DNA of 64,000 nucleotides, taken from positions 1 through 64,000 of the IMG/VR virus record IMGVR_UViG_3300030419_006726. One strand, 5' to 3'. The position numbers and the translations under genes were made by a program. The stretch comes from a virus. The notes under the pieces were generated by a model. It did no database searches. It worked only from the letters and a program-made list of their open reading frames with translations, and was not told where the DNA came from. Below are positions 31,283-56,421 of this stretch, one piece after another; the stretch's first letter is position 1; the number at the start of each line of letters is the position of its first letter.

Positions 31283-32542
31283 ATGACAGAAAAAAAGAAG
31301 ATTTTGGTCCTGTCTGACCATCCACTATCACCATCAGGTGTTGGAACACAGACAAAGTACTTTATTGAGTCATTGCTCAAAACAAACAGGTATAAGTTTA
31401 TTTGTTTGGGCGGTGCCATTAAGCACCAGAAATATGACCCTATTAAGGTAGATCCATGGGGTGAAGATTGGATTATCTATCCCGTAGACGGTTATGGAAC
31501 CCATGATATTATTCGCTCTCTCTTGAGAACAGAGCGCCCAGACATCGTATGGTTTATGACTGATCCTAGATTCTGGGGATGGCTGTGGGAGATTGAAGAT
31601 GAGGTCCGACCCCTAGTGCCAATGGTGTATTATCACGTATGGGACAACTACCCATACCCAAATTTCAACGCTAGGTACTACGACTCAACAGATGTTGTTG
31701 TTGCTATCTCAAAATTAACACACGACATCGTTCAAAACGTATCACCAAATGTAGAGTGCCACTATTTGCCACATTCTGTAGACACTGGGGTATTTAAGAA
31801 GCTTCCGGAATCAGAAGTTAAAGATTTTGTAGAAAAAGGCTTTGATTCTAGTGAAGAAAAATTTACAATATTCTGGAATAATCGAAACGCACGTCGAAAA
31901 CAATCTGGCTCACTGATTTGGTGGTTTAATGAGTTTCTAAACAAGGTCGGTCGTGACAAAGCCCGCCTTGTTATGCACACAGACCCTAAAGACAATAATG
32001 GTCAAGACTTGATTGCAATCATGCAAGAGTTGAACCTAGATAATGGAGAGGTTTTCATTTCCAGAGACAAGGTTCCACCCAAGCTTCTAGCTTTCATGTA
32101 TAATATGTCTGATTGTACAATTAATATTTCAGACGCTGAGGGTTTCGGTCTGGCAACGCTGGAATCGTTGGCATGTGAGACTCCGATCATTGCAACAATG
32201 ACTGGTGGCTTACAAGAACAAGTAACTGATGGAGAAGATTGGTTTGGAGTTGGATTGACACCGGTCTCCAAGGCAGTCATTGGATCTCAGGGTGTGCCAT
32301 ATATTTATGAAGACAGAGTAAGCCAAGATGATGTGGTTAATGCTTTGCTCAAGATGTATAACATGACAAAAGAAGAGAGGCAAGCGCTTGGCGCCAAAGG
32401 TCGCCAGCACGTAATGAATAATTATAATTTTGATCAATTTCAATCTAAATGGGTTGAATTGATTGACGGTGTTGTGGAAAATTATGGCTCTTGGGAAACC
32501 AGAGTCGGCTATGATAGATGGGAGATATTAGAAGTAGCATGA
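31283..32542 (+). CDS. GT4-family glycosyltransferase
   Basis: SGVG, NRNARRK, EGFGLATLES. Confidence 0.9.
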   Translation: MTEKKKILVLSDHPLSPSGVGTQTKYFIESLLKTNRYKFICLGGAIKHQKYDPIKVDPWGEDWIIYPVDGYGTHDIIRSLLRTERPDIVWFMTDPRFWGWLWEIEDEVRPLVPMVYYHVWDNYPYPNFNARYYDSTDVVVAISKLTHDIVQNVSPNVECHYLPHSVDTGVFKKLPESEVKDFVEKGFDSSEEKFTIFWNNRNARRKQSGSLIWWFNEFLNKVGRDKARLVMHTDPKDNNGQDLIAIMQELNLDNGEVFISRDKVPPKLLAFMYNMSDCTINISDAEGFGLATLESLACETPIIATMTGGLQEQVTDGEDWFGVGLTPVSKAVIGSQGVPYIYEDRVSQDDVVNALLKMYNMTKEERQALGAKGRQHVMNNYNFDQFQSKWVELIDGVVENYGSWETRVGYDRWEILEVA

Positions 32543-33780
32543 AGAAGATTTTAATTAAAGGCCCAGTGCTAACACGCTCTGGATATGGCGAACAAGCAAG
32601 ATTTGCACTGAGATCACTGGCCTCGCGCCCAGATTTGTATGATTTGTATTTGATGGCCACCGGCTGGGGTAAAACAAGCTGGGTAATAGAGGATAATCCC
32701 GAAAGAGATTGGATCGATCATCTGATTAACAAGACAGCTAGCTTTATTCAGTCTGGTGGCAAATTCGATGAATCTTTGCAGGTTACAATTCCAAATGAAT
32801 GGGAGCGTATCGCTCCATACAATGTTGGGTATACTGCCGGCATCGAAACTACTAAAGTGGCACCCGAATGGATTGAAAAAGCCAACATGATGGACAAAAT
32901 TATTGTTGTATCGAATCATTCAAAAAATGTATTCGAAGATACGGCATACGTTTTACAGAACGATAAGCAACAGAGAGCAAATTTCCAATGCAGCACAGAA
33001 ATCGAAGTTGTCAACTATCCCGTTAAAAAATACGATCCAGTGGATTTGGAGTTGAATCTACCTTATGATTTTAATTTTTTATGTGTCGCTCAATGGGGTC
33101 CGAGAAAGAATGTAAAAAACACTATTAAGTGGTTCGTAGAAGAATTCCATGACGATGAAGTCGGCTTGGTTGTTAAAATGTTTCAAATGAAAAATTGCCA
33201 CATGGATAAGCAGAATTGCATAACTAAACTTACTGAATTATTGAGACAGTATCCGGATAAGAAGTGTAAACTGCATTTGATTCATGGCAACATGACTGAT
33301 GAGGAAATGAATTCCCTATATACGCATCCAAAACTTAAAGCATTTGTTACCCTTACTCATGGAGAGGGTTACGGTCTTCCGCTATTTGAAGCAGCCTATA
33401 ATGGTATGCCGGTAGTAGCCCCAGCCTGGAGCGGTCATTGCGATTTTCTTTTTGCCCCGGTTAAAAAGAAAGGGTCCAACAAAACAAAGATAAGACCTCT
33501 GTTTGCCAAGGTGGATTATGACCTGAAGCCAATTCAAAAAGAGGCAGTGTGGAAAGGGGTGCTGCAGCCAGATTCAATGTGGTGCTATGCGAGAGAAACT
33601 AGCTATAAGAGAAAGCTAAGAGAGGTTTATAAATCACACAGTATGTTTGTTGGTCACGCCAAGAAATTAAAGAAACACCTTAATAGTAATTTTACGAACC
33701 AAATAATGTATTCAAATTTTGTTAATGCTATGGCAAGCAAGAACACCTCCGCAGAAGATAGTTTAGTAATGGTGGTTTGA
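32539..33780 (+). CDS. GT4-family glycosyltransferase
   Basis: SGYG, RKN, GEGYGLPLFEA. Confidence 0.9.
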   Translation: MKKILIKGPVLTRSGYGEQARFALRSLASRPDLYDLYLMATGWGKTSWVIEDNPERDWIDHLINKTASFIQSGGKFDESLQVTIPNEWERIAPYNVGYTAGIETTKVAPEWIEKANMMDKIIVVSNHSKNVFEDTAYVLQNDKQQRANFQCSTEIEVVNYPVKKYDPVDLELNLPYDFNFLCVAQWGPRKNVKNTIKWFVEEFHDDEVGLVVKMFQMKNCHMDKQNCITKLTELLRQYPDKKCKLHLIHGNMTDEEMNSLYTHPKLKAFVTLTHGEGYGLPLFEAAYNGMPVVAPAWSGHCDFLFAPVKKKGSNKTKIRPLFAKVDYDLKPIQKEAVWKGVLQPDSMWCYARETSYKRKLREVYKSHSMFVGHAKKLKKHLNSNFTNQIMYSNFVNAMASKNTSAEDSLVMVV

Positions 33781-35834
33781 TGAATGTTGTTTACGCTGCA
33801 CAGTTTCGAGATTCTAGTGGATATGCGGTAGCAGCTAGAGGATATCTTAAAGCTCTTGATGCTTATTTGACAGAGCACCCGGGAGCCTTCAATCTTAAAA
33901 TATATTCTTCTGTTGTAAACCACTCAGACAAGCTTTTATTAGAAGAAGTCCAATTGATTGAAAAATATGAGTTTAGAGATAACTCGGACATACAGAAAGC
34001 GATAAATCAAGATTATACTTTTGTGTGGCATATGCCGCCACCAATGTTATCTTTTGCAGATGACAGATTTAAGCCTTCGCCAAATTGTAGCCCTTCGCTA
34101 TCTCGTTTGCAAAGATGTTCTTCGAAAAATGTAAACCTTACAGTATGGGAAACAACCACCATACCGATTGAGTGGCGTAGGGATTACGAATATTACAAGC
34201 CTGACAAGATTATCGTACCTTGCAGCTGGAATAAACAAGTATTTGAAGAGTGTGTACCCGATGTACCCTGTGAGATGATTCCGCACATCATTGAGCCGCA
34301 TACCATCTCTACCAATAAAAATGGCCATCCAATGGGTACGCTTCGGCCGCTAAAGTTACCATTCGATCTTACTAATAAGTTTGTTGTTTTAACGATGTCG
34401 CAATGGACAAAGCGAAAAGGTTTTGATACCTTGATTAGATCGTTTACCGCTGAGTTTGGAAATAATAAAGACGCAGTATTGATTATCAAAACTTATGGCG
34501 GGCCCGAAGGCGATGCTGAAAGTATTGGAAGGTATGTAAAGAGCTTAAGAAATTCGATTTTACTTCCAGGCCCAGTCAACACTCATGCATCTGAGAATAA
34601 TATACTATTAATTCCCGGATTTGTTCCTACAGAAAGTATAATGTGGCTGCATCAGCAAGCGAGCGTATTCGCTTTGTTTTCTCGCGGCGAGGGATTTGGT
34701 TTACCAATAGCAGAGGCTATAATGGCCAAAAAACCAGTGATTGTACCAAAGGAAGGCGGTCATGTGGATTATATTAACACAGATAGCGCTTTTTTTGTTG
34801 ATGGCCGCTGGGACACGTGCGCGTATGGAATGACTCCGTATGGGTGCGATGGAGATTGGTACGAGTGCAGTATCAAGTCCGGTCGCGAGCAATTGAGGAA
34901 GGCATATGAAATATGGAAGAAGCGTGGAAACGAATTGGCTGTCATGGGCGTCGACGCGTATACTCACGTAATAGAAGGCCCTTATTCTCGATACAAGGTT
35001 GGATCGACTTTTTATGAGAAGCTCAAGGACCTAAACGAGCCAGATACTAAGCCAAAAACAATACTTGAAAGAAGAACAGCTTTAAAGCGAAAAGTTCAGA
35101 AAGCCCCCACGTTGAAAGAGAAGGTGGCACTATTGAAGGACTCATTTAAGGGCGAGACATGTTATGTGTTATCCTGCGGCCCGTCTATTTCTGACCATAC
35201 TTTGAAACAGTACAAGGAGAAATTACAAGACAAGCTTGTACTATCAGTAAAGCAGACATATGATAAGGTGCCAGATTTAGTTGATTTTCACTTTTTTAAT
35301 TGTGCAAACACTCCAAGGCCCAAGGGATATCCGCTGCTTGAGCATTATCAGTATAACGATAATGAACCGATCATCGTCGCTAGCAGCAATTATCCACTCC
35401 ACTCCCGCTGGAGCCCGTTTCAGAAGCATGATTTGTTCTTTAAGATTCCCATTCGCACTGAAATTAATGATCAGTTTATCTGCAAGACAAAGAACTTTGA
35501 TGACTATGACTTAGGTGTGAATGTCGAACGCCCATGCGGCCCGGGCATAATGTATGAAACCGTTATATTTATGGCCGCCCATTTGGGCGTTAAGAAGATC
35601 ATTGCCGTTGGTTGGGACTTAAGTCAGACAAATCCAAAAAAACCAAATGAATATGAACATTTCTATAAAGATGAAAAAATGCTTATAAAAGGCGACATAT
35701 TGCCTTGGGAAGTTGCTGCCACATGCGAAGCTTCAAAAGAACTATACGAATGGCTACAAGGCCGTGGTATCGAGTTGGAATTAGCATCAAATAAAAGCTC
35801 ATTGTATGAAAAAATTCCAAGAGTTGTGTTATAA
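33777..35834 (+). CDS. GT4 glycosyltransferase fused to a Maf/DUF115-like (nonulosonate transferase-type) domain
   Basis: SGYA, RKG, GEGFGLPIAEA; C-terminal FKGETCYVLSCGPS..AAHLGVKKIIAVGWDL. Confidence 0.82.
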   Translation: MMNVVYAAQFRDSSGYAVAARGYLKALDAYLTEHPGAFNLKIYSSVVNHSDKLLLEEVQLIEKYEFRDNSDIQKAINQDYTFVWHMPPPMLSFADDRFKPSPNCSPSLSRLQRCSSKNVNLTVWETTTIPIEWRRDYEYYKPDKIIVPCSWNKQVFEECVPDVPCEMIPHIIEPHTISTNKNGHPMGTLRPLKLPFDLTNKFVVLTMSQWTKRKGFDTLIRSFTAEFGNNKDAVLIIKTYGGPEGDAESIGRYVKSLRNSILLPGPVNTHASENNILLIPGFVPTESIMWLHQQASVFALFSRGEGFGLPIAEAIMAKKPVIVPKEGGHVDYINTDSAFFVDGRWDTCAYGMTPYGCDGDWYECSIKSGREQLRKAYEIWKKRGNELAVMGVDAYTHVIEGPYSRYKVGSTFYEKLKDLNEPDTKPKTILERRTALKRKVQKAPTLKEKVALLKDSFKGETCYVLSCGPSISDHTLKQYKEKLQDKLVLSVKQTYDKVPDLVDFHFFNCANTPRPKGYPLLEHYQYNDNEPIIVASSNYPLHSRWSPFQKHDLFFKIPIRTEINDQFICKTKNFDDYDLGVNVERPCGPGIMYETVIFMAAHLGVKKIIAVGWDLSQTNPKKPNEYEHFYKDEKMLIKGDILPWEVAATCEASKELYEWLQGRGIELELASNKSSLYEKIPRVVL

Positions 35835-35846
35835 TTTGAGGACCAA

Positions 35847-36680
35847 ATGAAGAATACCTATATCATCGCCGAAATCGGCATTAACCACAATGGCGACTTA
35901 GATGTCGCCAAAAAGCTTATTGATGTTGCGGCCGTATCTGGCTGCGATGCCGTTAAGTTTCAAAAGAGAAACCCAGATGTCTGCGTCCCAGATCATCAGA
36001 AAGGTGTCATGCGCGAGACGCCATGGGGCACAATGACTTATTTAGATTATAAGTATCGCATGGAATTTGAAAAGGATGAGTATGATCAGATTGATGCTTA
36101 CTGCAGTGATAAAAATATTGATTGGTCTGCATCCCCGTGGGACATGGACAGTCTAGATTTCTTATTACAGTATAAGATACCCTTTATCAAAGTGCCATCT
36201 GCTATGATCACGAACGAGCAGTTAATGCGCGCTTGTGCCAGTACTGGAAAGAAAGTGATTTTTTCGGCCGGCATGAGTTCTTTGGACGAGGTTGACGAGG
36301 CCGTTCGCTGGATGCGAGAAGAGAATGCCGATTTTGCACTTTTGCATTGCAACTCTTCATATCCTGCGCCATTGGAAGACTTAAATCTGAGCTGTATCCA
36401 GACGCTTAAGCAAAGATACGATTGCGAGGTGGGATATAGTGGTCATGAATTTAGATTAGGGACGAGTGTTGCTGCAATTTATTTAGGCGCAACGATTGTG
36501 GAGAGACACATTACTCTAGATAGAACGATGTGGGGATCTGATCACCTAGCGTCAGTAGAGCCACAGGGGCTCATAAAGCTGGTAAAGGGAATTAGAGAAT
36601 TAGAAATTGCTCATGGCGATGGAATTAAAAAAGTTACTGAAGCGGAAAAGAAAGTCCGCAAAAAATTGAGAGGTTATTGA
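35847..36680 (+). CDS. neuB: NeuB-family sialic/nonulosonic acid synthase, short form without SAF domain
   Basis: IIAEIGINHNGD, AVKFQ, LLHCNSSYP, GYSGHE, ERHITLD..GSDH. Confidence 0.95.
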   Translation: MKNTYIIAEIGINHNGDLDVAKKLIDVAAVSGCDAVKFQKRNPDVCVPDHQKGVMRETPWGTMTYLDYKYRMEFEKDEYDQIDAYCSDKNIDWSASPWDMDSLDFLLQYKIPFIKVPSAMITNEQLMRACASTGKKVIFSAGMSSLDEVDEAVRWMREENADFALLHCNSSYPAPLEDLNLSCIQTLKQRYDCEVGYSGHEFRLGTSVAAIYLGATIVERHITLDRTMWGSDHLASVEPQGLIKLVKGIRELEIAHGDGIKKVTEAEKKVRKKLRGY

Positions 36681-37652
36681 ATGCCAAAAATTTGGAATAA
36701 TTGTGTAGAGATTTATAAAGATGGAGATTTTGTTGATGATTACGATATAGATCGAACCGTTTTTGCATCATGGCAGAGGTATACTAATATTCTATGCCGT
36801 GAGCCAGCAGCGACGGTGTGGTATGATAAGATATCCAAGCGTTGTTTTGGCTCAGAGCAAGATTTTTATGCAAATCCAAATGACTTTTCATTTTTCTCGC
36901 AAAAAGAAGATTTTGTTTCAAATAGAGCCTGGGGCCTGAACCATGTGATGGATAGGTTTGGAAATCATCTCGGAAACAACGTAATTATAGAGGACGACTA
37001 CATTCTGCAAGACTTAGAAGAGTTGAAAAAGTTTCAAGATAAGAAAATTTTGATTGTTGGCGGCGGCCCAACCGCGAAGGATATTAACTGGCAAGATACT
37101 GAATATGATTACGTTTGGTCTTGTACGAAGTTTTATCTTAACGAGCAACTAAATAATGTGGGTGTTGATTTAGCAACTATTGGCGGCAATGTTGATTTAG
37201 ATGATGTTGAGTTTAATGCATATTTGTCAGAAAACAATACCATTTGTGGTTTCGAGTGTGGAGTTTCTCCGTTCAAGGATCCTCAAGATATGGTGCGATT
37301 CAAAGAAAGATATCCAAACAGAGTATTCTATTACCACCCTAGATATTTCTCCAAGCTTGGCGCCGCCGCTAGGCTTTTGTGCTTGGGATCTTTTGTGGGA
37401 GCGGAACAAGTCAGCTTTGTTGGATTTGATGGAAACCCAGTAGGAAAAAAACATGCTTTTGAAGGCGAAAATAAAGTTCATAATGAACCATGGCGAAACA
37501 ATGAGACAAATGATTTATATAGAAGACAGCTTGTACTGCTTTGGGATTATTTGCTACAGTTTGATACAAAATATCAGAATTTAGGCGAAGGTCATCCTTC
37601 GAATCAATCAAGCGATATTTCAAAAAAGATGTTTCCGCTTGGAGATAGTTGA
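36681..37652 (+). CDS. CstII/GT42-like sialyltransferase paralog 1
   Basis: KKILIVGGGPT..VWSCTKFY..VSFVGFDG, like CstII IIAGNGPS..CNQFY..IYLSGID. Confidence 0.7.
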   Translation: MPKIWNNCVEIYKDGDFVDDYDIDRTVFASWQRYTNILCREPAATVWYDKISKRCFGSEQDFYANPNDFSFFSQKEDFVSNRAWGLNHVMDRFGNHLGNNVIIEDDYILQDLEELKKFQDKKILIVGGGPTAKDINWQDTEYDYVWSCTKFYLNEQLNNVGVDLATIGGNVDLDDVEFNAYLSENNTICGFECGVSPFKDPQDMVRFKERYPNRVFYYHPRYFSKLGAAARLLCLGSFVGAEQVSFVGFDGNPVGKKHAFEGENKVHNEPWRNNETNDLYRRQLVLLWDYLLQFDTKYQNLGEGHPSNQSSDISKKMFPLGDS

Positions 37653-38344
37653 TGAAAAGATTGCAGGATATCGCTGTTGTGATCCAGGCCCGCCTTGGAT
37701 CACAAAGAGTTCCAGGCAAGATGCTCAAGCCTTTTGCCGGTACCACTCTTATGGACATTGCCATCAAGAAGATGATGGATTCTAAGGTCTTTCCAAGAGA
37801 GAACTTCTTTGTCTCGGTCCACGAAAAAGAATTGGTCGATGTTGCGCAGAAATATGGCGCAAACATATATTACCGTAGTGAAAAATCAGCCAATTCTGAA
37901 GGCACGCCACTAACAGAAATGTATGAATGGTGGGACAAATTGCCATTTAAATATTGTGTCTTGGTTAATGCGTGCGCTCCATTCCTAACTGTTGCAACTG
38001 TCGACAGTTTTGTTGAAGCTTATATGAAAACAGAGTCAGATGGGCTGTTTGGGGTCATGGAAAAGAAGAACTATTTTTGGAATACTGACGGAAAGTTAAT
38101 AACAAATTGGCCGGAAGGACAAGCTTGCATGAATACAAAGTTTGTTGAAACTACTTATGAAGCAGCACATTGCCTTTACGCCGGCCGGATGGATCGTATT
38201 AACGATGGTATTTGGATGGGAGATTTCCAAGTCCCAGGCGACATTGAACTGCACGCAATGAGCGAATTTGAATCGTTAGATATTGATTACCCGTGGCAGT
38301 TTGACATGTGCGAATCAATATACAGACAAGTGAAAGGATTATAA
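37649..38344 (+). CDS. neuA: CMP-sialic acid synthetase (acylneuraminate cytidylyltransferase)
   Basis: IQARLGSQRVPGK..SLDIDYPWQF. Confidence 0.9.
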   Translation: MMKRLQDIAVVIQARLGSQRVPGKMLKPFAGTTLMDIAIKKMMDSKVFPRENFFVSVHEKELVDVAQKYGANIYYRSEKSANSEGTPLTEMYEWWDKLPFKYCVLVNACAPFLTVATVDSFVEAYMKTESDGLFGVMEKKNYFWNTDGKLITNWPEGQACMNTKFVETTYEAAHCLYAGRMDRINDGIWMGDFQVPGDIELHAMSEFESLDIDYPWQFDMCESIYRQVKGL

Positions 38345-39819
38345 TGTTTTACATATTTGAAATGGCAAACAATCACCAGGGAAGCGTGAAGCATGCAAAG
38401 TTGATTGTTGATAGGTTTGCAGATATTGCGAAAAAGTACAGTATCAATGCAGGAATCAAGCTGCAGTTTAGACAATTGGATACTTTTATCCATAAAGACT
38501 ATATTGATTCAGATTTAAAATATGTCAAAAGGTTTAAGGATACTCGCTTATCTAAAGAGCAATTTGGAGAAATCACTGATTACATTCGCAGCAAAGATCT
38601 TGTAACTATCGCTACGCCTTTTGACAATGAGTCTTTACCGTGGCTTGAAGATCTAGACATTTCTGTCGTAAAGGTTGCAAGTTGTTCAGTAGATGATTGG
38701 CCATTGCTAAGAGATGTATGCAAGATTAATAAAAGAATTATTATCTCTACTGGCGGTGCATCGATCGATCAGCTAAAAGAAGTTTACACTCTGTTCAAAA
38801 ACCATAATCGTGATTTTGCCTTTATGCATTGTGTTGGAGAGTATCCAACACCTGTAGAGTGCTCCAACTTAAACAGAATTAAGAGACTGAGAGAAGAATT
38901 CCCAGATATTGAAATTGGATTTTCTACGCACGAATCACCAACTCAAAAGTCAATGGCGGGCTATGCCGCGGCCCTGGGGTGTACAATCGTAGAGAAGCAT
39001 GTTGGAGTTGAAACTGACGATGTAAGTCTGAATGCCTACTCGTGCGCACCGTATGACATGGAAAAGGTAATAAAAGAAATTCAATTATTTGAAAGTGCTA
39101 ACAGTGGTATTTCGGCTACAGAAAAGCAGACCCTCTACAAACTTAAAAGAGGTATATATGCCAAGAGAAGCATTAAACAAGGCGAGACAATTACTGCTGA
39201 TGATTTGTATTTTTCAATGCCCTTGGTTGAGAGTCAGCTCGATGCATCAAAAATCGATCAAGTTTTAGAGGGTTTCCGCTGCAATGTGGATGTTTTGGCC
39301 GACGCGCCAATCACTATGTACGATTTTGGCTCAACAGATAGAAAAGACAAAGTTGATAAAATCGCTCACTACACGAAGGGATACTTGGACGCCAACAGAA
39401 TCCCTCTTAGCAACAAAGACACTGCAGAGATTTCTGCACACTATGGAATCGACAATTTTAATGAAACTGGTGTTTTTATTATTAATAAGATCAATAGAGA
39501 ATACTGTAAAAAGATATTGGTTGTCTCACCCGGCCAATCTCATCCGACACACCACCATATCAAGAAAGAGGAGTCGTTTGAGCTATTGAGCGGTGATTGT
39601 ATGTTGATTTTAAATGGAAAAGTCATGGCGCTTGAAAGAGGTCGACCAGTATTGATTCCCCGGGGAGTTAAGCACTCTTTCAAAAGCAGAAGTGGCTGCA
39701 TTATTGAGGAAGTATCGACAACACATTATCCTGGCGACTCTGTATATGAAGATCCAGAGATTAACAAGCTTAAGCTTTCAGAGAGAAAATATGTTGTTGA
39801 TAATTTAAGCGAGTATTAA
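38344..39819 (+). CDS. neuB: second NeuB synthase with SAF domain and C-terminal cupin (lyxose-isomerase-like)
   Basis: IFEMANNHQG, KLQF, MHCVGEYP, GFSTHE, EKH; RGIYAKRSIKQGE SAF; YCKKIL..HPTHHH.KKEESF..HSF cupin. Confidence 0.88.
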   Translation: MFYIFEMANNHQGSVKHAKLIVDRFADIAKKYSINAGIKLQFRQLDTFIHKDYIDSDLKYVKRFKDTRLSKEQFGEITDYIRSKDLVTIATPFDNESLPWLEDLDISVVKVASCSVDDWPLLRDVCKINKRIIISTGGASIDQLKEVYTLFKNHNRDFAFMHCVGEYPTPVECSNLNRIKRLREEFPDIEIGFSTHESPTQKSMAGYAAALGCTIVEKHVGVETDDVSLNAYSCAPYDMEKVIKEIQLFESANSGISATEKQTLYKLKRGIYAKRSIKQGETITADDLYFSMPLVESQLDASKIDQVLEGFRCNVDVLADAPITMYDFGSTDRKDKVDKIAHYTKGYLDANRIPLSNKDTAEISAHYGIDNFNETGVFIINKINREYCKKILVVSPGQSHPTHHHIKKEESFELLSGDCMLILNGKVMALERGRPVLIPRGVKHSFKSRSGCIIEEVSTTHYPGDSVYEDPEINKLKLSERKYVVDNLSEY

Positions 39820-39825
39820 ATTAAA

Positions 39826-42716: not shown

Positions 42717-42717
42717 C

Positions 42718-48704: not shown

Positions 48705-49042
48705 ATGATGTGATTTGCTACAGAGACGAAGAAGAGGGAAAAATAAAGAAATATTTTTCTTGCAAGCCTTATTACGACATGATTGAGATTGTCAATCAAT
48801 GTCACGAACAGGGCGCCTACATAGTCATCTACACAGCCAGAGGAATGACATCTTTTGCTGGCAATCTTCATGATGTGTACGATAATTTATATCAACTTAC
48901 AAAAAATCAGCTAGATGATTGGGGCGTAAAATATCACAAACTTGCAATGGGCAAGCTTCACTATGATTTATTGATCGATGATAAGGCGGTAAGCTCATAT
49001 GACGTTGCAGGAATTGACTATATAAAGGAAAAGTTACAATGA
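48674..49042 (+). CDS. small HAD phosphatase (capsule-biosynthesis type)
   Basis: FDLDDVI, YTARG, GK..D..IDDK. Confidence 0.88.
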   Translation: MRDKVIAFDLDDVICYRDEEEGKIKKYFSCKPYYDMIEIVNQCHEQGAYIVIYTARGMTSFAGNLHDVYDNLYQLTKNQLDDWGVKYHKLAMGKLHYDLLIDDKAVSSYDVAGIDYIKEKLQ

Positions 49043-50640
49043 AAAGAGAAGATTTTAGAGTTTTGATTATATATCCAAACTTGAGCATGATGCTGACGCC
49101 CTCTTATGCTATTGGGCTGTGGACCACGATTCTTAAAGAACAAAAATATGATGTAGATCTTTTTGATTGTACTCCCTATATGCCAACTTATGAATTTATT
49201 GGCAAACAGGACGAGGATGTTGTCGAAATTCAGAAGTCCATGGATGAATCAGCTAGCGCAACTCGTGCCAACAAATTTATGGCCAGTCGCAAGTATGATC
49301 CCATCAAATTGTTTGGTAGTCCAAAGACAGATCTTCTTGGTGATTTCACCGCAAAACTTGAAGAATTCAAGCCACATGTGGCGATCATATCAACGTTGGT
49401 TGAGGACACGTGGCCCCAAGCAAAGGATCTATTAAAAGCGCTTTCGAAATATCCAGAGATCAAATCAATCGTTGGTGGCGTTTTCCCAACTATGGCACCG
49501 GAAGAAGTGATCGCAGATCCCAATGTCAATTGCATTGCCGAAGGCGAGGGGGAGCACACTATACCTGAATTTTGTGAAGCTGTTCGAAATGGGATTGCTC
49601 CAGTCAATATTAGGGGCACGCGTGTTAAGGGTGAGGACGGAACCATCCGGACAAATTCTCCAAGAGCCTTGGTGGATGTCAATGATTTAATTCCAGACTT
49701 CTCTCTGTTTGACGAACGACGATTTTTAAGACCACTTGGTGCGAAAATCTGGAAAGCAATGCCGATTGAGACATACAGGGGTTGTCCGTATAAGTGTGCT
49801 TTTTGCAATTCTCCTACTCAGGTATTTCTTGCAAAGCAGAAGAATCAAGGTCGATACACCAGACGAAAGACCATGGACACTCTACGTCGAGAACTTGAGG
49901 CAATGGTTGAAAGGTATAATCCTAACTTTTTATATATCAATGATGATGCCTTCATGGCTCGACCTACCAGCGAGATCAAAGAGTTTGCAGAAATGTATAA
50001 GGACTTCAAAATGCCTTTCTGGTGCCAGACTAGGTTTGAGGATGTTAGCGAGGATAAAATTGGATGGCTTACTGAAGTCGGTCTTTATCGTATGTCTTTT
50101 GGACTGGAGCATGGAAACCAAGAGTTTCGTAGAAAAAAATTGTTTCGAAATATCACCAACAAATCTATGATAGAGAAGGCTAAAATACTCGGAGATTTTA
50201 AAGTCCCATATTCTATGAACATTATTATTGGTATGCCTTATGAAACGCGTGAGTTAATCTTTGACACCATCAATCTAGCCATAGACATAGAGACATTTGA
50301 TTCTCTTGCTGTTAATATTTTTGCCCCCTATCGCGGCACCGTGTTGCGCAAGAATGCTATTGACGAAGGTTGGCTAGATCCAACACTACAGTGTACTTCA
50401 TTCATCGAGAAATCTGTATTAAGAATGCCGAAACCATATCTGCAACCTGAAGAGATGTTAGGCCTGCAGAGAGTGTTTCCACTATACGTTACAATGCCGA
50501 AATCTTATTATCCGGATATTGAAAGGGCAGAAAAGTTCGATAGCGTGGGAAATGAAATATTCGAAAGATTATCAGAGAAGTATTATATTGATAAATATGG
50601 AACCAGTGAAGCTGATAGGATGCTTACCTATGCTGGCTAA
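49039..50640 (+). CDS. B12-binding radical SAM enzyme (class B-like)
   Basis: VGGVFPT, GEGE, RGCPYKCAFC, DDAF, GLEHG, IIGMPYET. Confidence 0.92.
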   Translation: MKREDFRVLIIYPNLSMMLTPSYAIGLWTTILKEQKYDVDLFDCTPYMPTYEFIGKQDEDVVEIQKSMDESASATRANKFMASRKYDPIKLFGSPKTDLLGDFTAKLEEFKPHVAIISTLVEDTWPQAKDLLKALSKYPEIKSIVGGVFPTMAPEEVIADPNVNCIAEGEGEHTIPEFCEAVRNGIAPVNIRGTRVKGEDGTIRTNSPRALVDVNDLIPDFSLFDERRFLRPLGAKIWKAMPIETYRGCPYKCAFCNSPTQVFLAKQKNQGRYTRRKTMDTLRRELEAMVERYNPNFLYINDDAFMARPTSEIKEFAEMYKDFKMPFWCQTRFEDVSEDKIGWLTEVGLYRMSFGLEHGNQEFRRKKLFRNITNKSMIEKAKILGDFKVPYSMNIIIGMPYETRELIFDTINLAIDIETFDSLAVNIFAPYRGTVLRKNAIDEGWLDPTLQCTSFIEKSVLRMPKPYLQPEEMLGLQRVFPLYVTMPKSYYPDIERAEKFDSVGNEIFERLSEKYYIDKYGTSEADRMLTYAG

Positions 50641-50658
50641 TAAACAGGAGAGAATAAA

Positions 50659-51006
50659 ATGAATTTAGAAAATGTTGCTAGAGATTATTTTTCTGCCTTT
50701 GAAGGTAAAAAGTTGGATACGTTGTTCGACATGTTTCATGAAGATGTATCTCTTAAGGATTGGAATCTATCGGCCCAAGGTAGACGGTCTGTGTTGGTTG
50801 CGAATGCTGAAATATTTGACGCTATCGATAAAATAAGTGTAAATGTACAAAATCTATATTTATGTGGTATGACAGTTGTAGCAGAGCTTTTGATACTGGC
50901 CGATGATCAGGAGCCCTTGCCAGTTGTTGATATCATTAAATTCCATCCAGAATCTGTTGATGGCAATTTTAAGATCGAATCGATTGTCGCCTATAGGGGC
51001 AATTAA
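50659..51006 (+). CDS. SnoaL/NTF2-like protein
   Basis: YFSAFE..MFHEDVSLKDW..VVDIIKF..I.AYRG. Confidence 0.75.
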   Translation: MNLENVARDYFSAFEGKKLDTLFDMFHEDVSLKDWNLSAQGRRSVLVANAEIFDAIDKISVNVQNLYLCGMTVVAELLILADDQEPLPVVDIIKFHPESVDGNFKIESIVAYRGN

Positions 51007-51825
51007 ATGAAAACAGCAGTTTGCTTTAGTGGTCTTGTTGGAAGCACAAAAGGGAAAAGCCAAGAATTGATAGGCGATTTCAGTAAGTGTTTTGAAATTA
51101 GCTCCACTCTTTACAAGGAACACATCTTGGCCAAAAATGATGTAGATGTGTTTGTGCACTCTTGGTCAACGGGGGTCAAAGATCAGATCCTTGAAGCATA
51201 CGAGCCTAAAAAACACATCATTGAGAAGCAGAGAGTGTTTAATACTCCCAAGTATGACATCTTGAGAGAGACACCTGAAATTCGAAAACAAACCCACTAT
51301 AGTCTGTGGTACAGTCGCAAGATGGCAACACAACTTAAGTCAGAATACGAAAAAGAGCACGGTTTCAAATATGACTGTGTAATGTTGGCGCGATTTGATT
51401 TAGCGTGGCAAACCGATCTTATTTTTGAAGACCACGATCAACAGTATTTTTGGACCCAGAAATGGCCAAAGAAAATCTTAAATGGGCGAATGCTCAAAGA
51501 CTTAGACTATTGGAAGTTGCGTGAGCGCAATCTTGACTTTAAGACAAAGTGGTGGGGATACCCTCACAACAACGATGGTTTGCTGGGGATGTGGTTTTTC
51601 TCAAACTCAGATAATATTGATCAATTTGTGACCATGTATGATCGTTTGGACGAATATTCTTTGCCCAACAAGTGTCCGTTAGATGGATCTGGAAGGATGT
51701 CAGCTCACCAACAGTGCCTGTATCACTTGCAACAGTTGGGTATAGAAGATCGATTAAGATTTTGCGACAAAAACTGGCACGATGACTGCCCATCTGTAAG
51801 AAGAAAATATTACAAGGAAAAATAA
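51007..51825 (+). CDS. putative glycosyltransferase-like protein
   Basis: AVCFSG..DVFVHSW..YDCVMLARFD pattern recalled from viral glycan clusters. Confidence 0.6.
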   Translation: MKTAVCFSGLVGSTKGKSQELIGDFSKCFEISSTLYKEHILAKNDVDVFVHSWSTGVKDQILEAYEPKKHIIEKQRVFNTPKYDILRETPEIRKQTHYSLWYSRKMATQLKSEYEKEHGFKYDCVMLARFDLAWQTDLIFEDHDQQYFWTQKWPKKILNGRMLKDLDYWKLRERNLDFKTKWWGYPHNNDGLLGMWFFSNSDNIDQFVTMYDRLDEYSLPNKCPLDGSGRMSAHQQCLYHLQQLGIEDRLRFCDKNWHDDCPSVRRKYYKEK

Positions 51826-51826
51826 C

Positions 51827-52741
51827 ATGAAAAAATATGCGATTTGTATACCAAGTTCTGATGATTTTGCACTGCCCACGGCTGTGTTGATTTATTCATT
51901 AGAGAAAAACTTTAAAGCTTATGAGGATTGTGATATCATTGTTCCATACAACACTTTAACTGAAGTTGGTATGAGTATAATTCGCAAAGCTGCACCAAAC
52001 GTTATTTTTAAAAAACCGAAGGATTCTTCATTTTATGAGATCATTCCTGGCACATTTTATGGTAAAGATAACTATGATGTATATTTGTCATTTGAGGCTT
52101 TTTCTCAAGAGGGTTATGAAAAAACTATTTACATGGATGCTGATATGTTGTGCATTAAAGATTTTTCGGATGCCCTTAAATATCCTCACGATGTTACATG
52201 GAGAAATCCAAATCTTGGAATTCTTATAGCAGACAAAAAGTGTGTGCCCTCTGCGTATTACAAATTAATTGATTTAGTAAAAAGAGATAGTAAAATTAGA
52301 AATGATTCCGGAGGTGACCAAAAGGCCGTAAGACATATGTATGGAAGAGAGTCTAAAAAAGTTAAGTTTATTTCAGAGTTGTATAATTTTCAATCTTGGG
52401 GTGGCGGTGGAAAAGGAAGTAATAAAAATTTCTTAAAGTACAAGGACCAGATAAAAGTCATTCACTATTCTGGATCCAGAAAGCCATGGGGTAATGTGTG
52501 GGATGGCACGCGTTATGATAAAAATAGTATAAAATATCCTTATCTAATGTTTCATTGCGAGGCAGTTAAGATTTGGCATGAATATTATGAAGATTTTAAA
52601 AACTACCGAATAGGCGAAACCTTAAGTCCTTTTGAAAAGTATGAAATTCAAAACAATGTATTTCTCAAAGACACCCCTGGCAGTGTTGACGGTTTATCGA
52701 AAATAGAAGAACAGTATCTTTGCAAAAGAGGGGACAAATAG
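51827..52741 (+). CDS. GT8-family glycosyltransferase
   Basis: IYMDADML, GDQ, YN, IHYSGSRKPW. Confidence 0.85.
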   Translation: MKKYAICIPSSDDFALPTAVLIYSLEKNFKAYEDCDIIVPYNTLTEVGMSIIRKAAPNVIFKKPKDSSFYEIIPGTFYGKDNYDVYLSFEAFSQEGYEKTIYMDADMLCIKDFSDALKYPHDVTWRNPNLGILIADKKCVPSAYYKLIDLVKRDSKIRNDSGGDQKAVRHMYGRESKKVKFISELYNFQSWGGGGKGSNKNFLKYKDQIKVIHYSGSRKPWGNVWDGTRYDKNSIKYPYLMFHCEAVKIWHEYYEDFKNYRIGETLSPFEKYEIQNNVFLKDTPGSVDGLSKIEEQYLCKRGDK

Positions 52742-53736
52742 TGAAGGTATTTGTTGCTGGCGGCGCCGGATATATCGGAACCAGATTGTCTAATGATCTT
52801 TGCGCATCCGGTCACGATGTCACTGTGCTGGATAGGTTTTGGTTTGGAAATCACCTAGACCATAGAATAAAACAAATCTGCACTGGCGTGCTTAAGATCA
52901 AAGATGATGCTTTAATTGGCTATGATGCTGTAGTTTTTCTAGCTGGTCTATCGAATGATCCAATGGCAGATTTTGATCCTGCCGGCAATTTTATTGAAAA
53001 CGGCGCGGCTCCTGCATATTTGGCATATGTTGCCAAAAAATGCGGCGTTCCAAGATATGTTTACGCAAGTTCTTGCAGCGTATATGGATTTACCGATAAT
53101 GAAGAAATGGATGAAAATTCAGAACCCAGCCCACAATATCCATATGGCATTGCAAAACTTCAAGCAGAAAAAGCTATTATGATGCTTGAGGACGAGAGCT
53201 TCAGGCCCATATCGATAAGAAAGGGAACTGTAGGTGGTTGGTCGCCAAGAATGAGGTATGATCTTGTAGTAAATACAATGACAAAATACGCTCTTACAGA
53301 GGGTAGGATTACTGTTAATAATCCAACCTTGTGGCGGCCACTAGTTGATATCCGCGATGTTGTACAGGCATATAAATTGTCGATAGAGGCCGATCTAAAT
53401 ACAGCTGGAATATTCAACATTTCTTATGAAAACTATACCATCAAGAGAATCGCCACCGAGATAAAGGACGCTTTGTTGCAATTTGGACACTCGACAGATA
53501 TATTGATCAACAACGTTGCAGATATTAGAAACTATAAAGCGACAAACCAGAGAGCAAAAGATCTCTTGGGCTTTGATCCAAAGTACACCGTAGCAGACTC
53601 TGTGGCTGAAATAATGAATAATATTACTAAAGTACATGGGTCATATGATTTCTCTGATGATTCTTACTATAACATAGCAACATATAAAAAGTTTTTTAGC
53701 TTGGAGCAGGACAATGACCATTCAAGAATACTATGA
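52741..53736 (+). CDS. NAD-dependent epimerase/dehydratase (extended SDR)
   Basis: GGAGYIG, LAGLSNDP, ASSCSVYG, YGIAK. Confidence 0.92.
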   Translation: MKVFVAGGAGYIGTRLSNDLCASGHDVTVLDRFWFGNHLDHRIKQICTGVLKIKDDALIGYDAVVFLAGLSNDPMADFDPAGNFIENGAAPAYLAYVAKKCGVPRYVYASSCSVYGFTDNEEMDENSEPSPQYPYGIAKLQAEKAIMMLEDESFRPISIRKGTVGGWSPRMRYDLVVNTMTKYALTEGRITVNNPTLWRPLVDIRDVVQAYKLSIEADLNTAGIFNISYENYTIKRIATEIKDALLQFGHSTDILINNVADIRNYKATNQRAKDLLGFDPKYTVADSVAEIMNNITKVHGSYDFSDDSYYNIATYKKFFSLEQDNDHSRIL

Positions 53737-54007
53737 ACATTATTTGACACTACATCAGAATAAGTGGTGTAGGCGCCTACATGCGTTGGGTCAAATTGCA
53801 ACCGTTGGGTATGTTATTGCAATTGTATCTGCACAACTATGGTGGCTGTTATTGGCCGCACCATTTGTAGTTTATCCATTTGCTTGGAGTGGTCACTTCT
53901 TTTTTGAAAAAAATAAGCCCGCCGCATGGTTTAATCCAGTTAAAGCAAAGATTTGCGACTGGATCATGTGTCGCGACATGATTATGGGAAGATTGAATAA
54001 TGATTAA
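53714..54007 (+). CDS. DUF962/Mpo1-like membrane protein
   Basis: YLTLHQN..RRLH..AWSGHFFFEKNKPA. Confidence 0.85.
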   Translation: MTIQEYYEHYLTLHQNKWCRRLHALGQIATVGYVIAIVSAQLWWLLLAAPFVVYPFAWSGHFFFEKNKPAAWFNPVKAKICDWIMCRDMIMGRLNND

Positions 54008-54932
54008 TTTAATGCATGTTAACGATTATATTATTGACACAAGACAATTTCGACCCTTGTTGAATGATAAAATAGTTGAACAGTTGGAACAAAGAGTCGC
54101 CGAGTTTGTTGGAGCGAAATACGCCTGCTCCCTACACAGCGCAACGTTTGCTATTTTCTTGTGCTTAAACGAATTAGAAAAGCAAACAATCACAGTTCCA
54201 AGCATCATACCCCCGGTTGTTCCAAATGCGATCCTAACTTCTGGTCAAGATTTAAATTTTAACGATAATATTGCCTGGGTGGGTCATTCATATATCCTGC
54301 ATGATTTTGGAGATTATAAAATTATCGACTCCGCACAGCAGCTATCTAAGAATCAATTTGCCGATCAAGCAAATGATGAAGACCTGATGATCTTTAGCTT
54401 TTATCCAACGAAGCCAGTTGGAAGCAGTGATGGCGGAATGATTGTTTCAAACGACAGGGATAAGATCAATAGATTCAAAATGATGTCTCGCTATGGAACA
54501 TCATTTGAGAATAACAGCTGGGAGCGCAAGATAGCCGTCCCTGGTTGGAAACTATATATGAATTCTATCCAGGCATATATTGCGAATGAAAATATGAACC
54601 TGTTGGAAGAGAAGACAGAAAAGTATTCTGAAATTTGTCAACAATATAACCATGCATTCGGATTAGAAAATACAAGCAAACACCTGTACAGGATCAACGT
54701 CACCAGCAATGATCAGTTTGTACACGATATGAAAGAGAGGGGAATTCAATGCGGCGTACATTATCGTGCCGCACACATGATGGATTGTTACGGGCTTAAG
54801 CAACTTAGTCTGCCTAGTTCTGAGTATGAATCTAGCAGCACTGTTAGCATCCCATATCATGAAAAATTAACAAAAGAACAGATTGAGTATATTATTAAGG
54901 AGGTTAAACCACATGTTATCTCATCACATTGA
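54000..54932 (+). CDS. DegT/DnrJ/EryC1/StrS PLP aminotransferase
   Basis: SATFA, IDSAQ, FSFYPTK..DGGMI. Confidence 0.88.
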   Translation: MINLMHVNDYIIDTRQFRPLLNDKIVEQLEQRVAEFVGAKYACSLHSATFAIFLCLNELEKQTITVPSIIPPVVPNAILTSGQDLNFNDNIAWVGHSYILHDFGDYKIIDSAQQLSKNQFADQANDEDLMIFSFYPTKPVGSSDGGMIVSNDRDKINRFKMMSRYGTSFENNSWERKIAVPGWKLYMNSIQAYIANENMNLLEEKTEKYSEICQQYNHAFGLENTSKHLYRINVTSNDQFVHDMKERGIQCGVHYRAAHMMDCYGLKQLSLPSSEYESSSTVSIPYHEKLTKEQIEYIIKEVKPHVISSH

Positions 54933-55278
54933 AGAAAGAGGAACGCTTAGCTATATGGAGCTAAGCGATTTAGGCTTTGAGCCAAAGAGGATGTACTATA
55001 TCACAGGAGTGCCACAAGGAGAGGTTCGTGGCAATCACGGACACAGGACAGACTTACAGTACCTAATTTGCGTAAAAGGGCAAATCCGCGTCACATTAAC
55101 TTCGAAGAATGAAGTGGAAACGACAATGCTAGATGCCGGCGATATGGTATTTATGGACAAGATGGTTTGGGGCGAGCAAGAATACATGACAGGTGAAGAC
55201 ATCCTGCTTGTATTGTGCTCTACTAGCTATGACAAGAGCGACTACATTACAGATATAAATGAGATTTTAGAGGCATAA
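54913..55278 (+). CDS. FdtA/QdtA-like sugar 3,4-ketoisomerase (cupin)
   Basis: RGTL..KRMYYI..RGNHGH..LLVLCSTSYD.SDYI. Confidence 0.88.
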   Translation: MLSHHIEERGTLSYMELSDLGFEPKRMYYITGVPQGEVRGNHGHRTDLQYLICVKGQIRVTLTSKNEVETTMLDAGDMVFMDKMVWGEQEYMTGEDILLVLCSTSYDKSDYITDINEILEA

Positions 55279-55279
55279 A

Positions 55280-55615
55280 ATGATAATTTACGTTGATGTC
55301 GATGAGACAATTTGTATAACGCCGGATGATAGAAATTACGCCATGGCCGATCCAATACTAGAAAACATTGAAAAGATCAACGCATTGTATGAGGCCGACC
55401 ACACGATCATTTATTGGACAGCTCGTGGTTCCGGTAGCGGGATTGATTGGCGAGAAATTACTGAAGATCAGTTTGCACTTTGGGGGGTTAAACACCATGA
55501 GTTAAAATTTGGAAAACCAGTGTATGATCTTTTTATTGACGACAAGAATTACAACACCGACATCTTTTTTAAAGCATCGACAGAGCAATTGGTTGAGGCG
55601 CTTGAAGAAGAATGA
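55280..55615 (+). CDS. small HAD phosphatase
   Basis: VDVDETI, WTARG, GKP.YD.FIDDK. Confidence 0.88.
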   Translation: MIIYVDVDETICITPDDRNYAMADPILENIEKINALYEADHTIIYWTARGSGSGIDWREITEDQFALWGVKHHELKFGKPVYDLFIDDKNYNTDIFFKASTEQLVEALEEE

Positions 55616-56421
55616 TAATTACTGATAATCATATCTTTGTTCATGTTCCAAAAACTGGTGGAAAATCAGTTACGGAATTTATTGATCAGAACAAGGCGTG
55701 TTTATCATCGCGACAAGGCAACTACATTATAAAAATCAGAGAGCCGGAAGAGGGCACCCCTGATAAGCCTTTTGTACCGTTGAGTGCATTGGACTATTGC
55801 TCTCATATACCGATCCGCTGGGTCAATAGATATGACATGGAGCACAGTTTTAAGGTAAAATTCTGCACAATCAGAAATCCATGGGACTGGTACATTTCAT
55901 ATTATTTTTATTCAAAAGTTTATGAAAGAGAATATTGGCAACAAATTTTGGATAAAGAGTCAGTAGGCAACTTTAACCAATGGGTTCAAAAGATGTTGAA
56001 TCACGAATATCTCAATGTTGAGTATAACGATTGGGAGTGCGAAAATTATCCTTTATTGCGAAGATTTCGACATATGGAAAAATTTGACATCGGACTTTGT
56101 ACACAAATGTTTTTAGACTACTGTCTTGTTTTGGATTTGGGCGACATTGAAAAAGAACAATTTAATGCAGATTTGATCGAATCTAGGCTAGGCATCAACA
56201 AAGTGTGTAAGCTAGAGACACTAGAAAACGATCTATTACGCATATTTAAAGAAAGTAAAATACAGTTGCGAAATGAGAGTATTCCACACATACAAAACAA
56301 AAAGCGACCGTATCCTTTTAATTTTTTAAAATCTCGTTATGATTTTTACGAGGAAGAAACAAAAAATCTAATTTATGAAAAAGACAAATTGTTTGTCGAA
56401 AAATATGGATATCAATTTTAA
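55612..56421 (+). CDS. sulfotransferase (family 2)
   Basis: FVHVPKTGGKS PAPS loop; IRNPWDWYISYY. Confidence 0.88.
   Translation: MIITDNHIFVHVPKTGGKSVTEFIDQNKACLSSRQGNYIIKIREPEEGTPDKPFVPLSALDYCSHIPIRWVNRYDMEHSFKVKFCTIRNPWDWYISYYFYSKVYEREYWQQILDKESVGNFNQWVQKMLNHEYLNVEYNDWECENYPLLRRFRHMEKFDIGLCTQMFLDYCLVLDLGDIEKEQFNADLIESRLGINKVCKLETLENDLLRIFKESKIQLRNESIPHIQNKKRPYPFNFLKSRYDFYEEETKNLIYEKDKLFVEKYGYQF

Follow-up and report, generated by a model that had tools for sequence, protein, structure and literature searches.

The DNA considered here is a stretch of 64,000 nucleotides, called the window below, which makes up the first 64 kb of a single linear virus record of 154,915 bp in IMG/VR (IMGVR_UViG_3300030419_006726). 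Between positions 31283 and 56421, the window carries a gap-free island of 27 open reading frames (ORFs), all on the + strand, in which adjacent ORFs either overlap or are separated by no more than 18 nt. An earlier note, made from the letters alone, had described a contiguous block of about 25 kb at this place and had read it as a soluble phage pathway that makes, activates and transfers a nonulosonic acid, includes numerous tailoring enzymes and lacks export machinery; both the block and the pathway were borne out. The note had also proposed virion proteins as the target, a reading that is plausible and less well supported. The genes, numbered g01 to g27 from left to right, were assigned by Pfam, NCBIfam, PHROGs and PDB profile searches together with fold comparison. 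The two NeuB genes, the NeuA-type activation gene, two HADs, three GT4, one GT8 and three CstII/GT42-like transferases, the amino-sugar branch (SDR, DegT, FdtA), two methyltransferases, a B12 radical-SAM enzyme and the sulfotransferase that had been listed earlier were all recovered; the pairs of PhyH dioxygenases and kinase domains and the Maf-like transferase were recovered in part, as set out below. The island, which takes up ~16% of the contig, is a genuine and widespread phage locus with a chemistry that is uncommon in phages. What it does in general terms is well supported: ulosonates activated with cytidine monophosphate (CMP) are made and transferred into a tailored heteroglycan.

The synthesis of ulosonic acids is covered by two genes of the NeuB family. 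The first, NeuB1 (g04, 35847..36680; PF03102, E 5.5e-79), codes for 277 aa and lacks a SAF domain, and the second, NeuB2 (g07, 38308..39819; PF03102, E 4e-44), carries SAF as well as a C-terminal cupin that resembles lyxose/mannose isomerases (Cupin_2 and Lyx_isomer matches). Both exceed the PF03102 cut-off of 22.1 bits (265.5 and 151.3 bits, respectively), and both fall below the equivalog cut-offs for N-acetylneuraminate synthase (TIGR03569; 276 and 148 bits vs 399.65) and for PseI (TIGR03586; 200 and 143 bits vs 340.25). Activation is represented by g06 (37649..38344; PF02348, E 2.8e-15, 57.1 bits vs a cut-off of 22.6), a CMP-ulosonate synthetase of the NeuA/PseF/KdsB superfamily, which likewise misses the PseF and KdsB equivalog cut-offs. 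Because the pathway enzymes tested all miss the NCBIfam equivalog cut-offs, the exact products cannot be named. Two small HAD phosphatases are paralogs of each other, namely g17 (48674..49042; DxDxV motif; phrog_1238, E 3e-27) and g26 (55280..55615; DxDxT motif), which belongs to the conserved core and is placed towards the island's right-hand end. The phage HADs are separate proteins of 111-122 aa, and their family profile matches PDB 9iqw, a ‘capsule biosynthesis protein’ (E 5e-23). A further cupin, g14 (45789..46139; PF01050, E 3.4e-30), is of the mannose-6-phosphate-isomerase type (PMI type).

In Bacteroides and Prymnesium, mannose 6-phosphate and phosphoenolpyruvate (PEP) give the 9-phosphate of 2-keto-3-deoxynononic acid (KDN, also Kdn), from which a phosphatase yields Kdn and a synthetase yields CMP-Kdn (PMC6200933). 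Genes of the types that this pathway would need are present in the island, the PMI-type cupin included. The nearest cellular homologues of NeuB1 share 52-58% identity with it and come from many phyla, dozens of Streptomyces among them. In one Streptomyces chromosome (L131:7520-10846), a SAF-less NeuB adjoins a cytidylyltransferase-HAD fusion, and this NeuB is kept in dozens of Streptomyces; the arrangement is probably the precursor pathway of a Kdn teichulosonic acid. The walls of Streptomyces are known to be decorated mainly with a Gal-Kdn polymer, which is often methylated (PMC11481543). A conserved HAD accompanies NeuB in the island and in two further phage lineages; a homologue of g26 adjoins NeuB in AG-345-L05 and lies ~3 kb from NeuB in the 484-kb uncultured phage LR756508.1, and a pair of NeuB and small HAD occurs in the latter and in a Kyanoviridae single-virus genome. 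On the strength of the SAF-less NeuB1, the phosphatase, the CMP-transferase, the Streptomyces neighbours and the PMI-type cupin g14, the island sugar is most likely of KDN type, made via a 9-phosphate. NeuB2, with its SAF domain and sugar-isomerase cupin, probably makes a second ulosonate.

Next to these enzymes stands a cassette formed by g14-g17 and g20. Within it, g15 (46069..47709) is a fusion of a nucleotidyltransferase and an APH-type kinase (NTP_transferase and APH matches), and the best PDB matches of the nucleotidyltransferase are LicC (9e-5) and an HddC-like protein (1e-3). Two kinase domains had been claimed for the island; the APH part of g15 stands as one, and no second was found. 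The aldolase-like g16 (47709..48704) belongs to a virus-specific family related to GatZ/KbaZ (weak PF08013 match; ESM Atlas 0.95-0.98, in viral clusters), and g20 (51007..51825; phrog_13607), which is without a Pfam match, travels together with g15 and g16. The cassette recurs as a unit in one relative locus (L017), and g15, g16 and g20 are found together in two others (L075 and L083). Its predicted activities (isomerase, kinase, phosphatase and nucleotidyltransferase) follow the logic of nucleoside diphosphate-heptose synthesis. As for the island as a whole, there is little doubt that it makes and transfers CMP-activated ulosonates.

The transfer steps begin at the left end. Right behind a PD-(D/E)XK nuclease gene (30370..31275, + strand; PF12705, E 3.7e-17), which is the conserved left flank, lies the GT4 glycosyltransferase g01 (31283..32542; PF00534, E 9e-13), the most conserved of the transferases, followed by the divergent GT4-like g02 (32518..33780; PF00534, E 7.5e-6, just below the cut-off at 26.0 vs 26.4 bits) and by g03 (33777..35834), in which a GT4 part (PF00534, E 1e-11), itself related to g02 (blastp E 2e-13), is fused with a domain of sialyltransferase fold. 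The best PDB match of g01 is the chlorovirus protein B736L (E 8e-13). The likeness of g01 and g03 to this protein was looked at as a clue to the acceptor and set aside as uninformative, since B736L also matches DNA glucosyltransferases (PMC6024577) and its own acceptor is unknown (PMC9614988). A single GT8 glycosyltransferase, g21 (51827..52741; PF01501, E 6e-11), is placed further downstream.

Three GT42-like paralogs, g05 (36681..37652), g08 (39826..40893) and g10 (41610..42716), stand between these genes. While g08 and g10, which are 33% identical, exceed the CST-I cut-off (PF06002; 28.7 and 29.6 bits vs 25), g05 belongs to the family by paralogy only (blastp E 3e-36 to g08 and 4e-39 to g10). 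An alignment of the three with 15 relatives gave a profile that matches CstII, CstI and the Pasteurella sialyltransferase (E 1e-8 to 1e-6). Similarly, the AlphaFold model of g08 (predicted local distance difference test, pLDDT, 82) has CstI, the P. multocida sialyltransferase and CstII, all of them GT42, as its top folds. With the Campylobacter enzymes CstI and CstII, which sialylate lipooligosaccharide (LOS), the paralogs thus share the fold and the GPS and G-x-D motifs. They differ from them in their low identity in structural alignment (17-20%), in an extra N-terminal module of ~120 aa and in an invariant His282, nine residues past G-x-D, which stands opposite a Tyr of CstII; the sequence alignment stops before the CstII catalytic-His region. 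In a search of 5.8 billion proteins, the relatives found were metagenomic only, with none that was cellular, and the family is without a PHROG; similar folds are common in uncultured Caudovirales. The sequences suggest that the paralogs belong to a new GT42-like branch found in phages only.

The C-terminal domain of g03 (aa ~425-685, 260 aa; model pLDDT 85) matches archaeal MptE (8sd5), CstII (1ro8), Maf (5mu5, E 1.5e-4) and animal GT29 at E 3e-5 to 1e-3. The proposal of a Maf-like transferase holds for the fold; in Pfam, the domain stays below the MptE-like cut-off (PF01973, 28.6 vs 34.6 bits). When compared with the profile of the GT42-like family, only its G-x-D...H region aligned, at a probability of 19%. 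The fold does not separate Maf from Cst, nor does it tell for any of the sialyltransferase-fold domains whether the acceptor is a protein. With the three GT42-like paralogs and this fold, the island holds four domains of the ulosonate-transferase type.

The remaining genes mostly prepare or modify sugars. The amino-sugar branch consists of g22 (52720..53736; PF01370, E 3e-28), an epimerase/dehydratase of the short-chain dehydrogenase/reductase (SDR) type acting on sugar nucleotides, g24 (54000..54932; PF01041, E 4e-32), a DegT-family aminotransferase with a short N-terminus, and g25 (54883..55278; PF05523, E 1.2e-29), a 3,4-ketoisomerase cupin of FdtA type. Methylation is represented by the S-adenosylmethionine (SAM) methyltransferase g09 (40890..41609; PF13489, E 3e-11), by g12 (43570..44943; PF13847 and PF13649), which has an unassigned N-terminal part of 265 aa, and by g18 (49039..50640; PF04055, E 1.5e-14; PF02310, E 2e-10), a B12-binding radical-SAM enzyme of the methyltransferase class that is below the equivalog cut-offs. 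As regards the PhyH dioxygenases, g13 (44940..45776) lies above the PF05721 cut-off (23.6 bits vs 22), and g11 (42616..43560), a weak PhyH/2-oxoglutarate-oxygenase-like match of 17.2 bits, lies below it. The sulfotransferase g27 (55612..56421; Sulfotransfer_2-like) has a PKTGG motif, a match to phrog_3347 (E 3e-6), Atlas language-model features at 0.96 and sulfotransferases as structure neighbours (TM 0.6-0.7). PDB sequence searches with g27, g16 and the N-terminal part of g12 gave no significant match. Two small proteins complete the island, the SnoaL-like g19 (50659..51006; PF12680, E 9e-7) and the Mpo1-like (DUF962) g23 of 97 aa (53714..54007; PF06127, E 3e-27), the island's one hydrophobic protein, which has the only transmembrane-like segment within it.

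Relatives of NeuB1 are found in at least 219 IMG/VR stretches, of which the best 80 (68-86% identity) were used for the locus counts, and in 3 of 50,697 GenBank phage records. In a NeuB1 tree, whose IMG/VR and cellular sets were both chosen by similarity to the window NeuB1, the window copy groups with the 80 IMG/VR copies in a clade of 81 rows that holds viral sequences only (local support 99), and the best cellular matches fall outside it. The NeuB2 of g07 falls in a separate, mostly viral NeuB clade. The usual order of the locus is PhoH, two small genes, the PD-(D/E)XK nuclease, GT4, GT4, GT4/sialyltransferase-fold and NeuB, and past NeuB come a variable part, a HAD, a zinc-ribbon protein and a sigma-like gene. 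Nuclease, both GT4 genes and NeuB are collinear in 47 of the 48 loci that hold all four, and the nuclease is followed by a g01 homologue in 49 of the 80. Homologues of g06 (74/80), g02 (52/80) and g26 (50/80, median identity 61%) are frequent, and g11 occurs in 34/80. The widely shared core comprises g01-g06, the GT42-like family and g26, and the patchy part g09 and g11-g25. From nuclease to sigma-like gene, the span is 10.4-17.7 kb in the 11 relatives that hold both flanks vs 25.9 kb here, a comparison in which the 10-kb flank limit favours short islands; in one more relative locus, with weak flank matches, it is 2.9 kb. The variable parts of the relatives hold GDP-mannose dehydratase, PseB-type dehydratases, FkbM methyltransferases, GT2, GNAT, pyruvyl transferase and second sets of NeuB and CMP-transferase. 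The variable half of the present island is covered by short contigs of three other marine studies in 26-30 of 30 bins, many at 99-100% identity; these contigs are too short to span the island. By sequence comparison, the island is conserved yet hypervariable across the lineage.

The left part of the locus extends beyond the marine relatives. A g01 homologue is present in Flavobacterium phage immuto (31% identity, 99% coverage, E 2e-64), in Microcystis phage Mel-JY01 (33%), in Rhodothermus phage RM378 (29%) and also in LR756508.1. In immuto and Mel-JY01, the nuclease is followed by one small gene, two GT genes and then variable sugar genes, which include GT2, aminotransferases, a methyltransferase, a mannosyltransferase, an acetyltransferase and an epimerase. 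Since g01 and its site are kept in these two phages, a sugar island was in place behind the nuclease before the marine clade arose. The ulosonate module, as judged from the gene contents compared, is an addition or elaboration within that clade.

A promoter-like motif, ACTATTTA, lies at 27825..27832 (+ strand), 26 nt before PhoH (27851), and heads a near gap-free string of co-directional genes that runs through the island. In the form ACTAHTTA, it has 38 copies on the + strand and 1 on the - strand of the whole contig, and 19 of them are within ~100 nt upstream of an ORF start. Examples are those at 10888, 11832, 26912 and 27825 of the window and at 92823, 121573, 126109 and 128847 of the genome; one copy stands 60 nt before the sheath gene and another 43 nt before the likely scaffold gene. 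In 10 of 22 relatives, the exact motif precedes the start of PhoH by 10-36 nt, at a background of 0.084 per kb, and in some of them it comes right after a terminator-like hairpin. From its distribution, ACTAHTTA is probably the phage's own promoter element. The T4 late promoter TATAAATA does not occur on the + strand, and generic scans for sigma-70 promoters and terminators stayed near the shuffled expectation.

The absence of membrane machinery, which had been noticed earlier, was confirmed. The 154,915 bp contain neither a Bac_transf match nor, apart from a tape-measure-like ORF, a polytopic membrane protein, and none of the transferases has a transmembrane helix, which is in keeping with glycosylation in the cytoplasm. 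The priming phosphoglycosyl transferase, Wzx/Wzy and ABC exporter of a capsule or O-antigen locus were not found in this 85%-complete record.

The favoured reading is that a lytic marine myovirus carries here a self-contained set of enzymes that build a glycan in the cytoplasm. A hexose 6-phosphate, most likely mannose 6-phosphate supplied by the PMI-type cupin, would be condensed with PEP to a ulosonate 9-phosphate by the SAF-less NeuB1. After dephosphorylation by a HAD, the product, probably of KDN type, would be CMP-activated by g06, and NeuB2 with its cupin, the SDR/DegT/FdtA genes and the kinase-nucleotidyltransferase cassette would provide further donors. The lineage-conserved GT4 pair would begin the glycan on a phage-encoded acceptor, for which the best guess is exposed Ser/Thr-rich virion parts, for example a capsid insertion domain or fibres. 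The g03 fusion and the three GT42-like paralogs would then add acidic ulosonate units, which would be methylated or sulfated. The outcome would be a strain-variable acidic particle coat, made along with the late structural proteins. The virion as the target is the leading reading, and it is held tentatively, at a little under an even chance; the same applies to the favoured statement taken as a whole, with the virion acceptor included. More tentative still is the wider proposal that an abundant lineage of marine myoviruses coats its particles with a strain-variable, acidic glycan of KDN type, a viral counterpart of the O-antigen, which would be assembled entirely in the cytoplasm by a sialyltransferase-fold branch specific to phages, and that, among the cultured relatives of three bacterial phyla, virions already receive sugars from the ancestral GT4 pair.

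A phage-encoded acceptor is suggested, first, by g01 and the site behind the nuclease, which are kept in the Flavobacterium and Microcystis phages, and by the homologue in RM378. With respect to timing, the sheath gene, the scaffold gene and the string from PhoH through the island share the same motif. Further, the gp23-type capsid protein (genome 122756-124612) has, at residues ~120-350, a hypervariable insertion with a high content of Ser, Thr, Gly and Asp; in the marine clade that bears the island, this insertion exceeds that of immuto or LR756508.1 by 60-100 aa. These three lines plausibly give circumstantial support to a phage-encoded acceptor, and none of them is decisive. Variable enzyme sets and spans are typical of exposed glycans.

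Several points weigh against this reading. The record is 85% complete by the CheckV estimate, and a glycan on a virion of the lineage has yet to be observed. The KDN assignment rests on context, as the equivalog cut-offs are missed for every ulosonate type. In RM378, only the GT and the next protein of 425 aa are present, amid genes of replication and DNA metabolism. ACTAHTTA is also found ahead of small genes in the first 27 kb, so the motif may not be late-specific. Known GT42 enzymes, which have no transmembrane anchor, act on lipid-linked oligosaccharides; as these characterised enzymes are soluble or peripheral and the glycans are exported by the host, the solubility argument for a virion target is weak. 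The named hosts, moreover, are all Gram-negative and share undecaprenyl phosphate (Und-P) carriers and lipid A-core, so the conservation of g01 across phyla is compatible with a host acceptor as well.

Next in rank comes a remodelling of the host envelope, which is somewhat more doubtful than a virion coat and still a serious candidate. Here, the soluble enzymes would use lipid carriers of the host (Und-P-linked units, lipid A-core or a capsule primer) to build or cap a glycan, which would be exported by host flippases, ligases or transporters, and the changed surface would block superinfection or keep progeny from sticking to debris. The best folds of the three paralogs, CstI, CstII and the P. 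multocida sialyltransferase, are GT42 structures that act on LOS, and the gene content varies as it does in O-antigen and capsule loci. The 24 ‘LPS genes’ of P-SSM2 have also been read as envelope remodelling (PMC1079782). On the other hand, the contig is without a priming transferase, flippase, polymerase or exporter, and all the membrane steps would therefore be borrowed from the host. Furthermore, the phages that keep g01 and its site infect hosts of separate phyla, which differ in their surface glycans, and the metagenomic relatives of the GT42-like family include none beside cellular NeuB genes.

It is unlikely, though conceivable, that the product is neither bound to the virion nor exported, as would be the case for a free acidic polymer or for a glycosylated non-structural or host protein with an intracellular role. 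Such a product is, to our knowledge, without phage precedent, and hypervariable tailoring would be hard to explain by it. In its favour, export genes are missing, the GT4 and sialyltransferase-fold fusion of g03 recalls the capsule polymerases of hexose-sialic acid polymers, and Streptomyces makes Gal-Kdn repeat polymers (PMC11481543). Far less likely is a hypermodification of DNA, in which the transferases would decorate modified bases of the phage genome. T-even phages glucosylate hydroxymethylcytosine, GT-B enzymes lie here beside a nuclease, the RM378 pair lies amid replication genes, and B736L, the best PDB match of g01, is also a top HHpred match of the T4 alpha-glucosyltransferase (PMC6024577). 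However, a ThyA-family hydroxymethylase (PF00303) was found neither in the contig nor in two complete relatives, one of them with terminal repeats, and we know of no precedent on DNA for eight transferase domains, CMP-ulosonates, sulfation and methylation. Finally, a host capsule locus misassembled onto a phage contig, at which a dip in GC content to 0.34 at 40-44 kb might hint, is hardly credible, since the strand and gene density of the island are the same as in the remaining genome, dozens of independent IMG/VR contigs keep the gene order across both junctions, the variable part recurs at 99-100% identity in the short contigs of three other marine studies and NeuB1 belongs to a virus-only clade; the contig, checked for the chimeric assembly that the earlier note had named as a danger, is not a chimera.

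No published description of this island was found in the literature searched. The island is a variant of the virus-encoded glycosylation islands such as the P-SSM2, CroV and Mimivirus clusters, and, as in virion glycosylation systems, both transferases and sugar-nucleotide enzymes are encoded by the virus. In P-SSM2, a T4-like cyanophage, 24 ‘LPS genes’ form a cluster (PMC1079782). Like the present island, the P-SSM2 clusters are large sets of epimerases, transferases and synthases in lytic marine T4-like phages, with function undemonstrated and export genes not noted. The island differs from them in that it is defined by ulosonate synthesis, CMP activation and four sialyltransferase-fold domains, and in that its locus is syntenic across a non-cyanophage ‘far-T4’ lineage. 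CroV carries a 38-kb glycogene cluster with a predicted Kdo pathway, and the clusters of Mimivirus, whose glycans coat the particle, are clade-specific (PMC9614988). In these giant viruses too, an isomerase, a PEP-condensing synthase, a phosphatase and CMP activation are followed by transferases and methyltransferases, with clade-specific content. The present virus is a bacteriophage, however, and its sugar would have nine carbons (NeuB family) instead of being Kdo (KdsA family); the CroV glycan itself is unverified.

Maf enzymes attach ulosonates straight to Ser/Thr residues of a structural protein in the cytoplasm. This mechanism of the flagellin transferases is what the virion hypothesis needs, and the C-terminal fold of g03 resembles them; g03 differs in being below the Pfam cut-off and fused to GT4, and a flagellin-like substrate is not known. 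The mycobacteriophages provide another comparison, as their soluble, phage-encoded transferases O-glycosylate capsid and tail proteins in the cytoplasm. Those systems consist of one or a few transferases that use host sugar nucleotides, and they have neither a ulosonate pathway nor a 25-kb island. With the KDN pathway and the teichulosonic acid of Streptomyces, the island shares a NeuB-family synthase, a phosphatase and a CMP-synthetase, whereas the phage HAD is a separate protein and the transferases are unrelated.

Sugar islands of marine T4-like phages have been known since 2005, and function has not been shown for any of them. The present one varies like a surface-antigen locus and is widespread in IMG/VR and rare in GenBank phages. 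If its glycan is virion-borne, the view of marine phage surfaces would have to be revised with regard to charge, stickiness, grazing, decay and host recognition, and ulosonic acids would join the list of virus-made glycans. The island also yields a candidate set of KDN-pathway enzymes. Moreover, immuto and Mel-JY01 are cultured relatives that carry the conserved GT4 pair, and they are open to direct testing.

The phage context of the contig is plain from hallmark genes outside the window (genome coordinates): the large terminase (103245-104861), the portal (104865-106814), the gp23-type major head protein, the tail sheath (128907-131960) and the baseplate wedge subunit (67547-69349), which is the first recognisable baseplate gene past the island. 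A sigma-like gene, a weak match (E 9e-5), begins downstream of the island at 57215. Coding density is 97%, and nearly all sizeable ORFs of the contig are on the + strand. The capsid protein is closest to those of LR756508.1, immuto, Mel-JY01 and RM378, and, together with the hallmark genes, this identifies a distant T4-like myovirus. DNA nearly identical to it was found in marine and seawater metagenomes (10 runs of 9 studies, each with at least one-fifth of the sampled words). A nucleotide search of the 7.6 kb downstream against GenBank phages gave no match.

Some further features of the genome may be mentioned. Positions 1-6000 of the window have a GC content of 52-55%, as against ~40% in the remaining genome, and code for an AAA_5 (MoxR/CobS-like) ATPase and a DUF2201 metallopeptidase/VWA protein, which form a CobT-like pair, and for a zinc-finger protein; this part could be a recently acquired module. 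A possible sequon, [ST][GA]S, is truly enriched in four proteins of the structural region (z 6-9) and was not used as evidence, as internal repeats (in proteins of 1531 and 832 aa) and Asp-box-like repeats (for some copies, in a protein of 401 aa) explain a part of it. It is 4-9 times above composition-matched shuffles (z 6-9), with no obvious repeats, at genome 90685-92271, 69349-70971 and 70973-80731. The 832-aa and 1531-aa proteins of the head region (genome 113237-120330) are made of repeated units with motifs such as TNNFTGD-TASQGL-IPDD and are probably fibrous or decoration proteins; much of the [ST][GA]S enrichment comes from these units. The 401-aa protein (genome 120330-121535), whose gene lies shortly before those for scaffold and capsid, matches BNR/Asp-box and Sortilin-Vps10 weakly and below cut-off, which suggests a beta-propeller, the fold class of sialidases. 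An ORF of 1051 aa (genome 96042-99197) joins SbcD-like and SbcC-like parts. Two giant ORFs, of 2106 aa (genome 60761-67081) and 3252 aa (70973-80731), stand on either side of the baseplate wedge gene, and the longer one contains a Laminin_G_3 (concanavalin-like lectin) domain and, at genome 73966, a run of 10 N.

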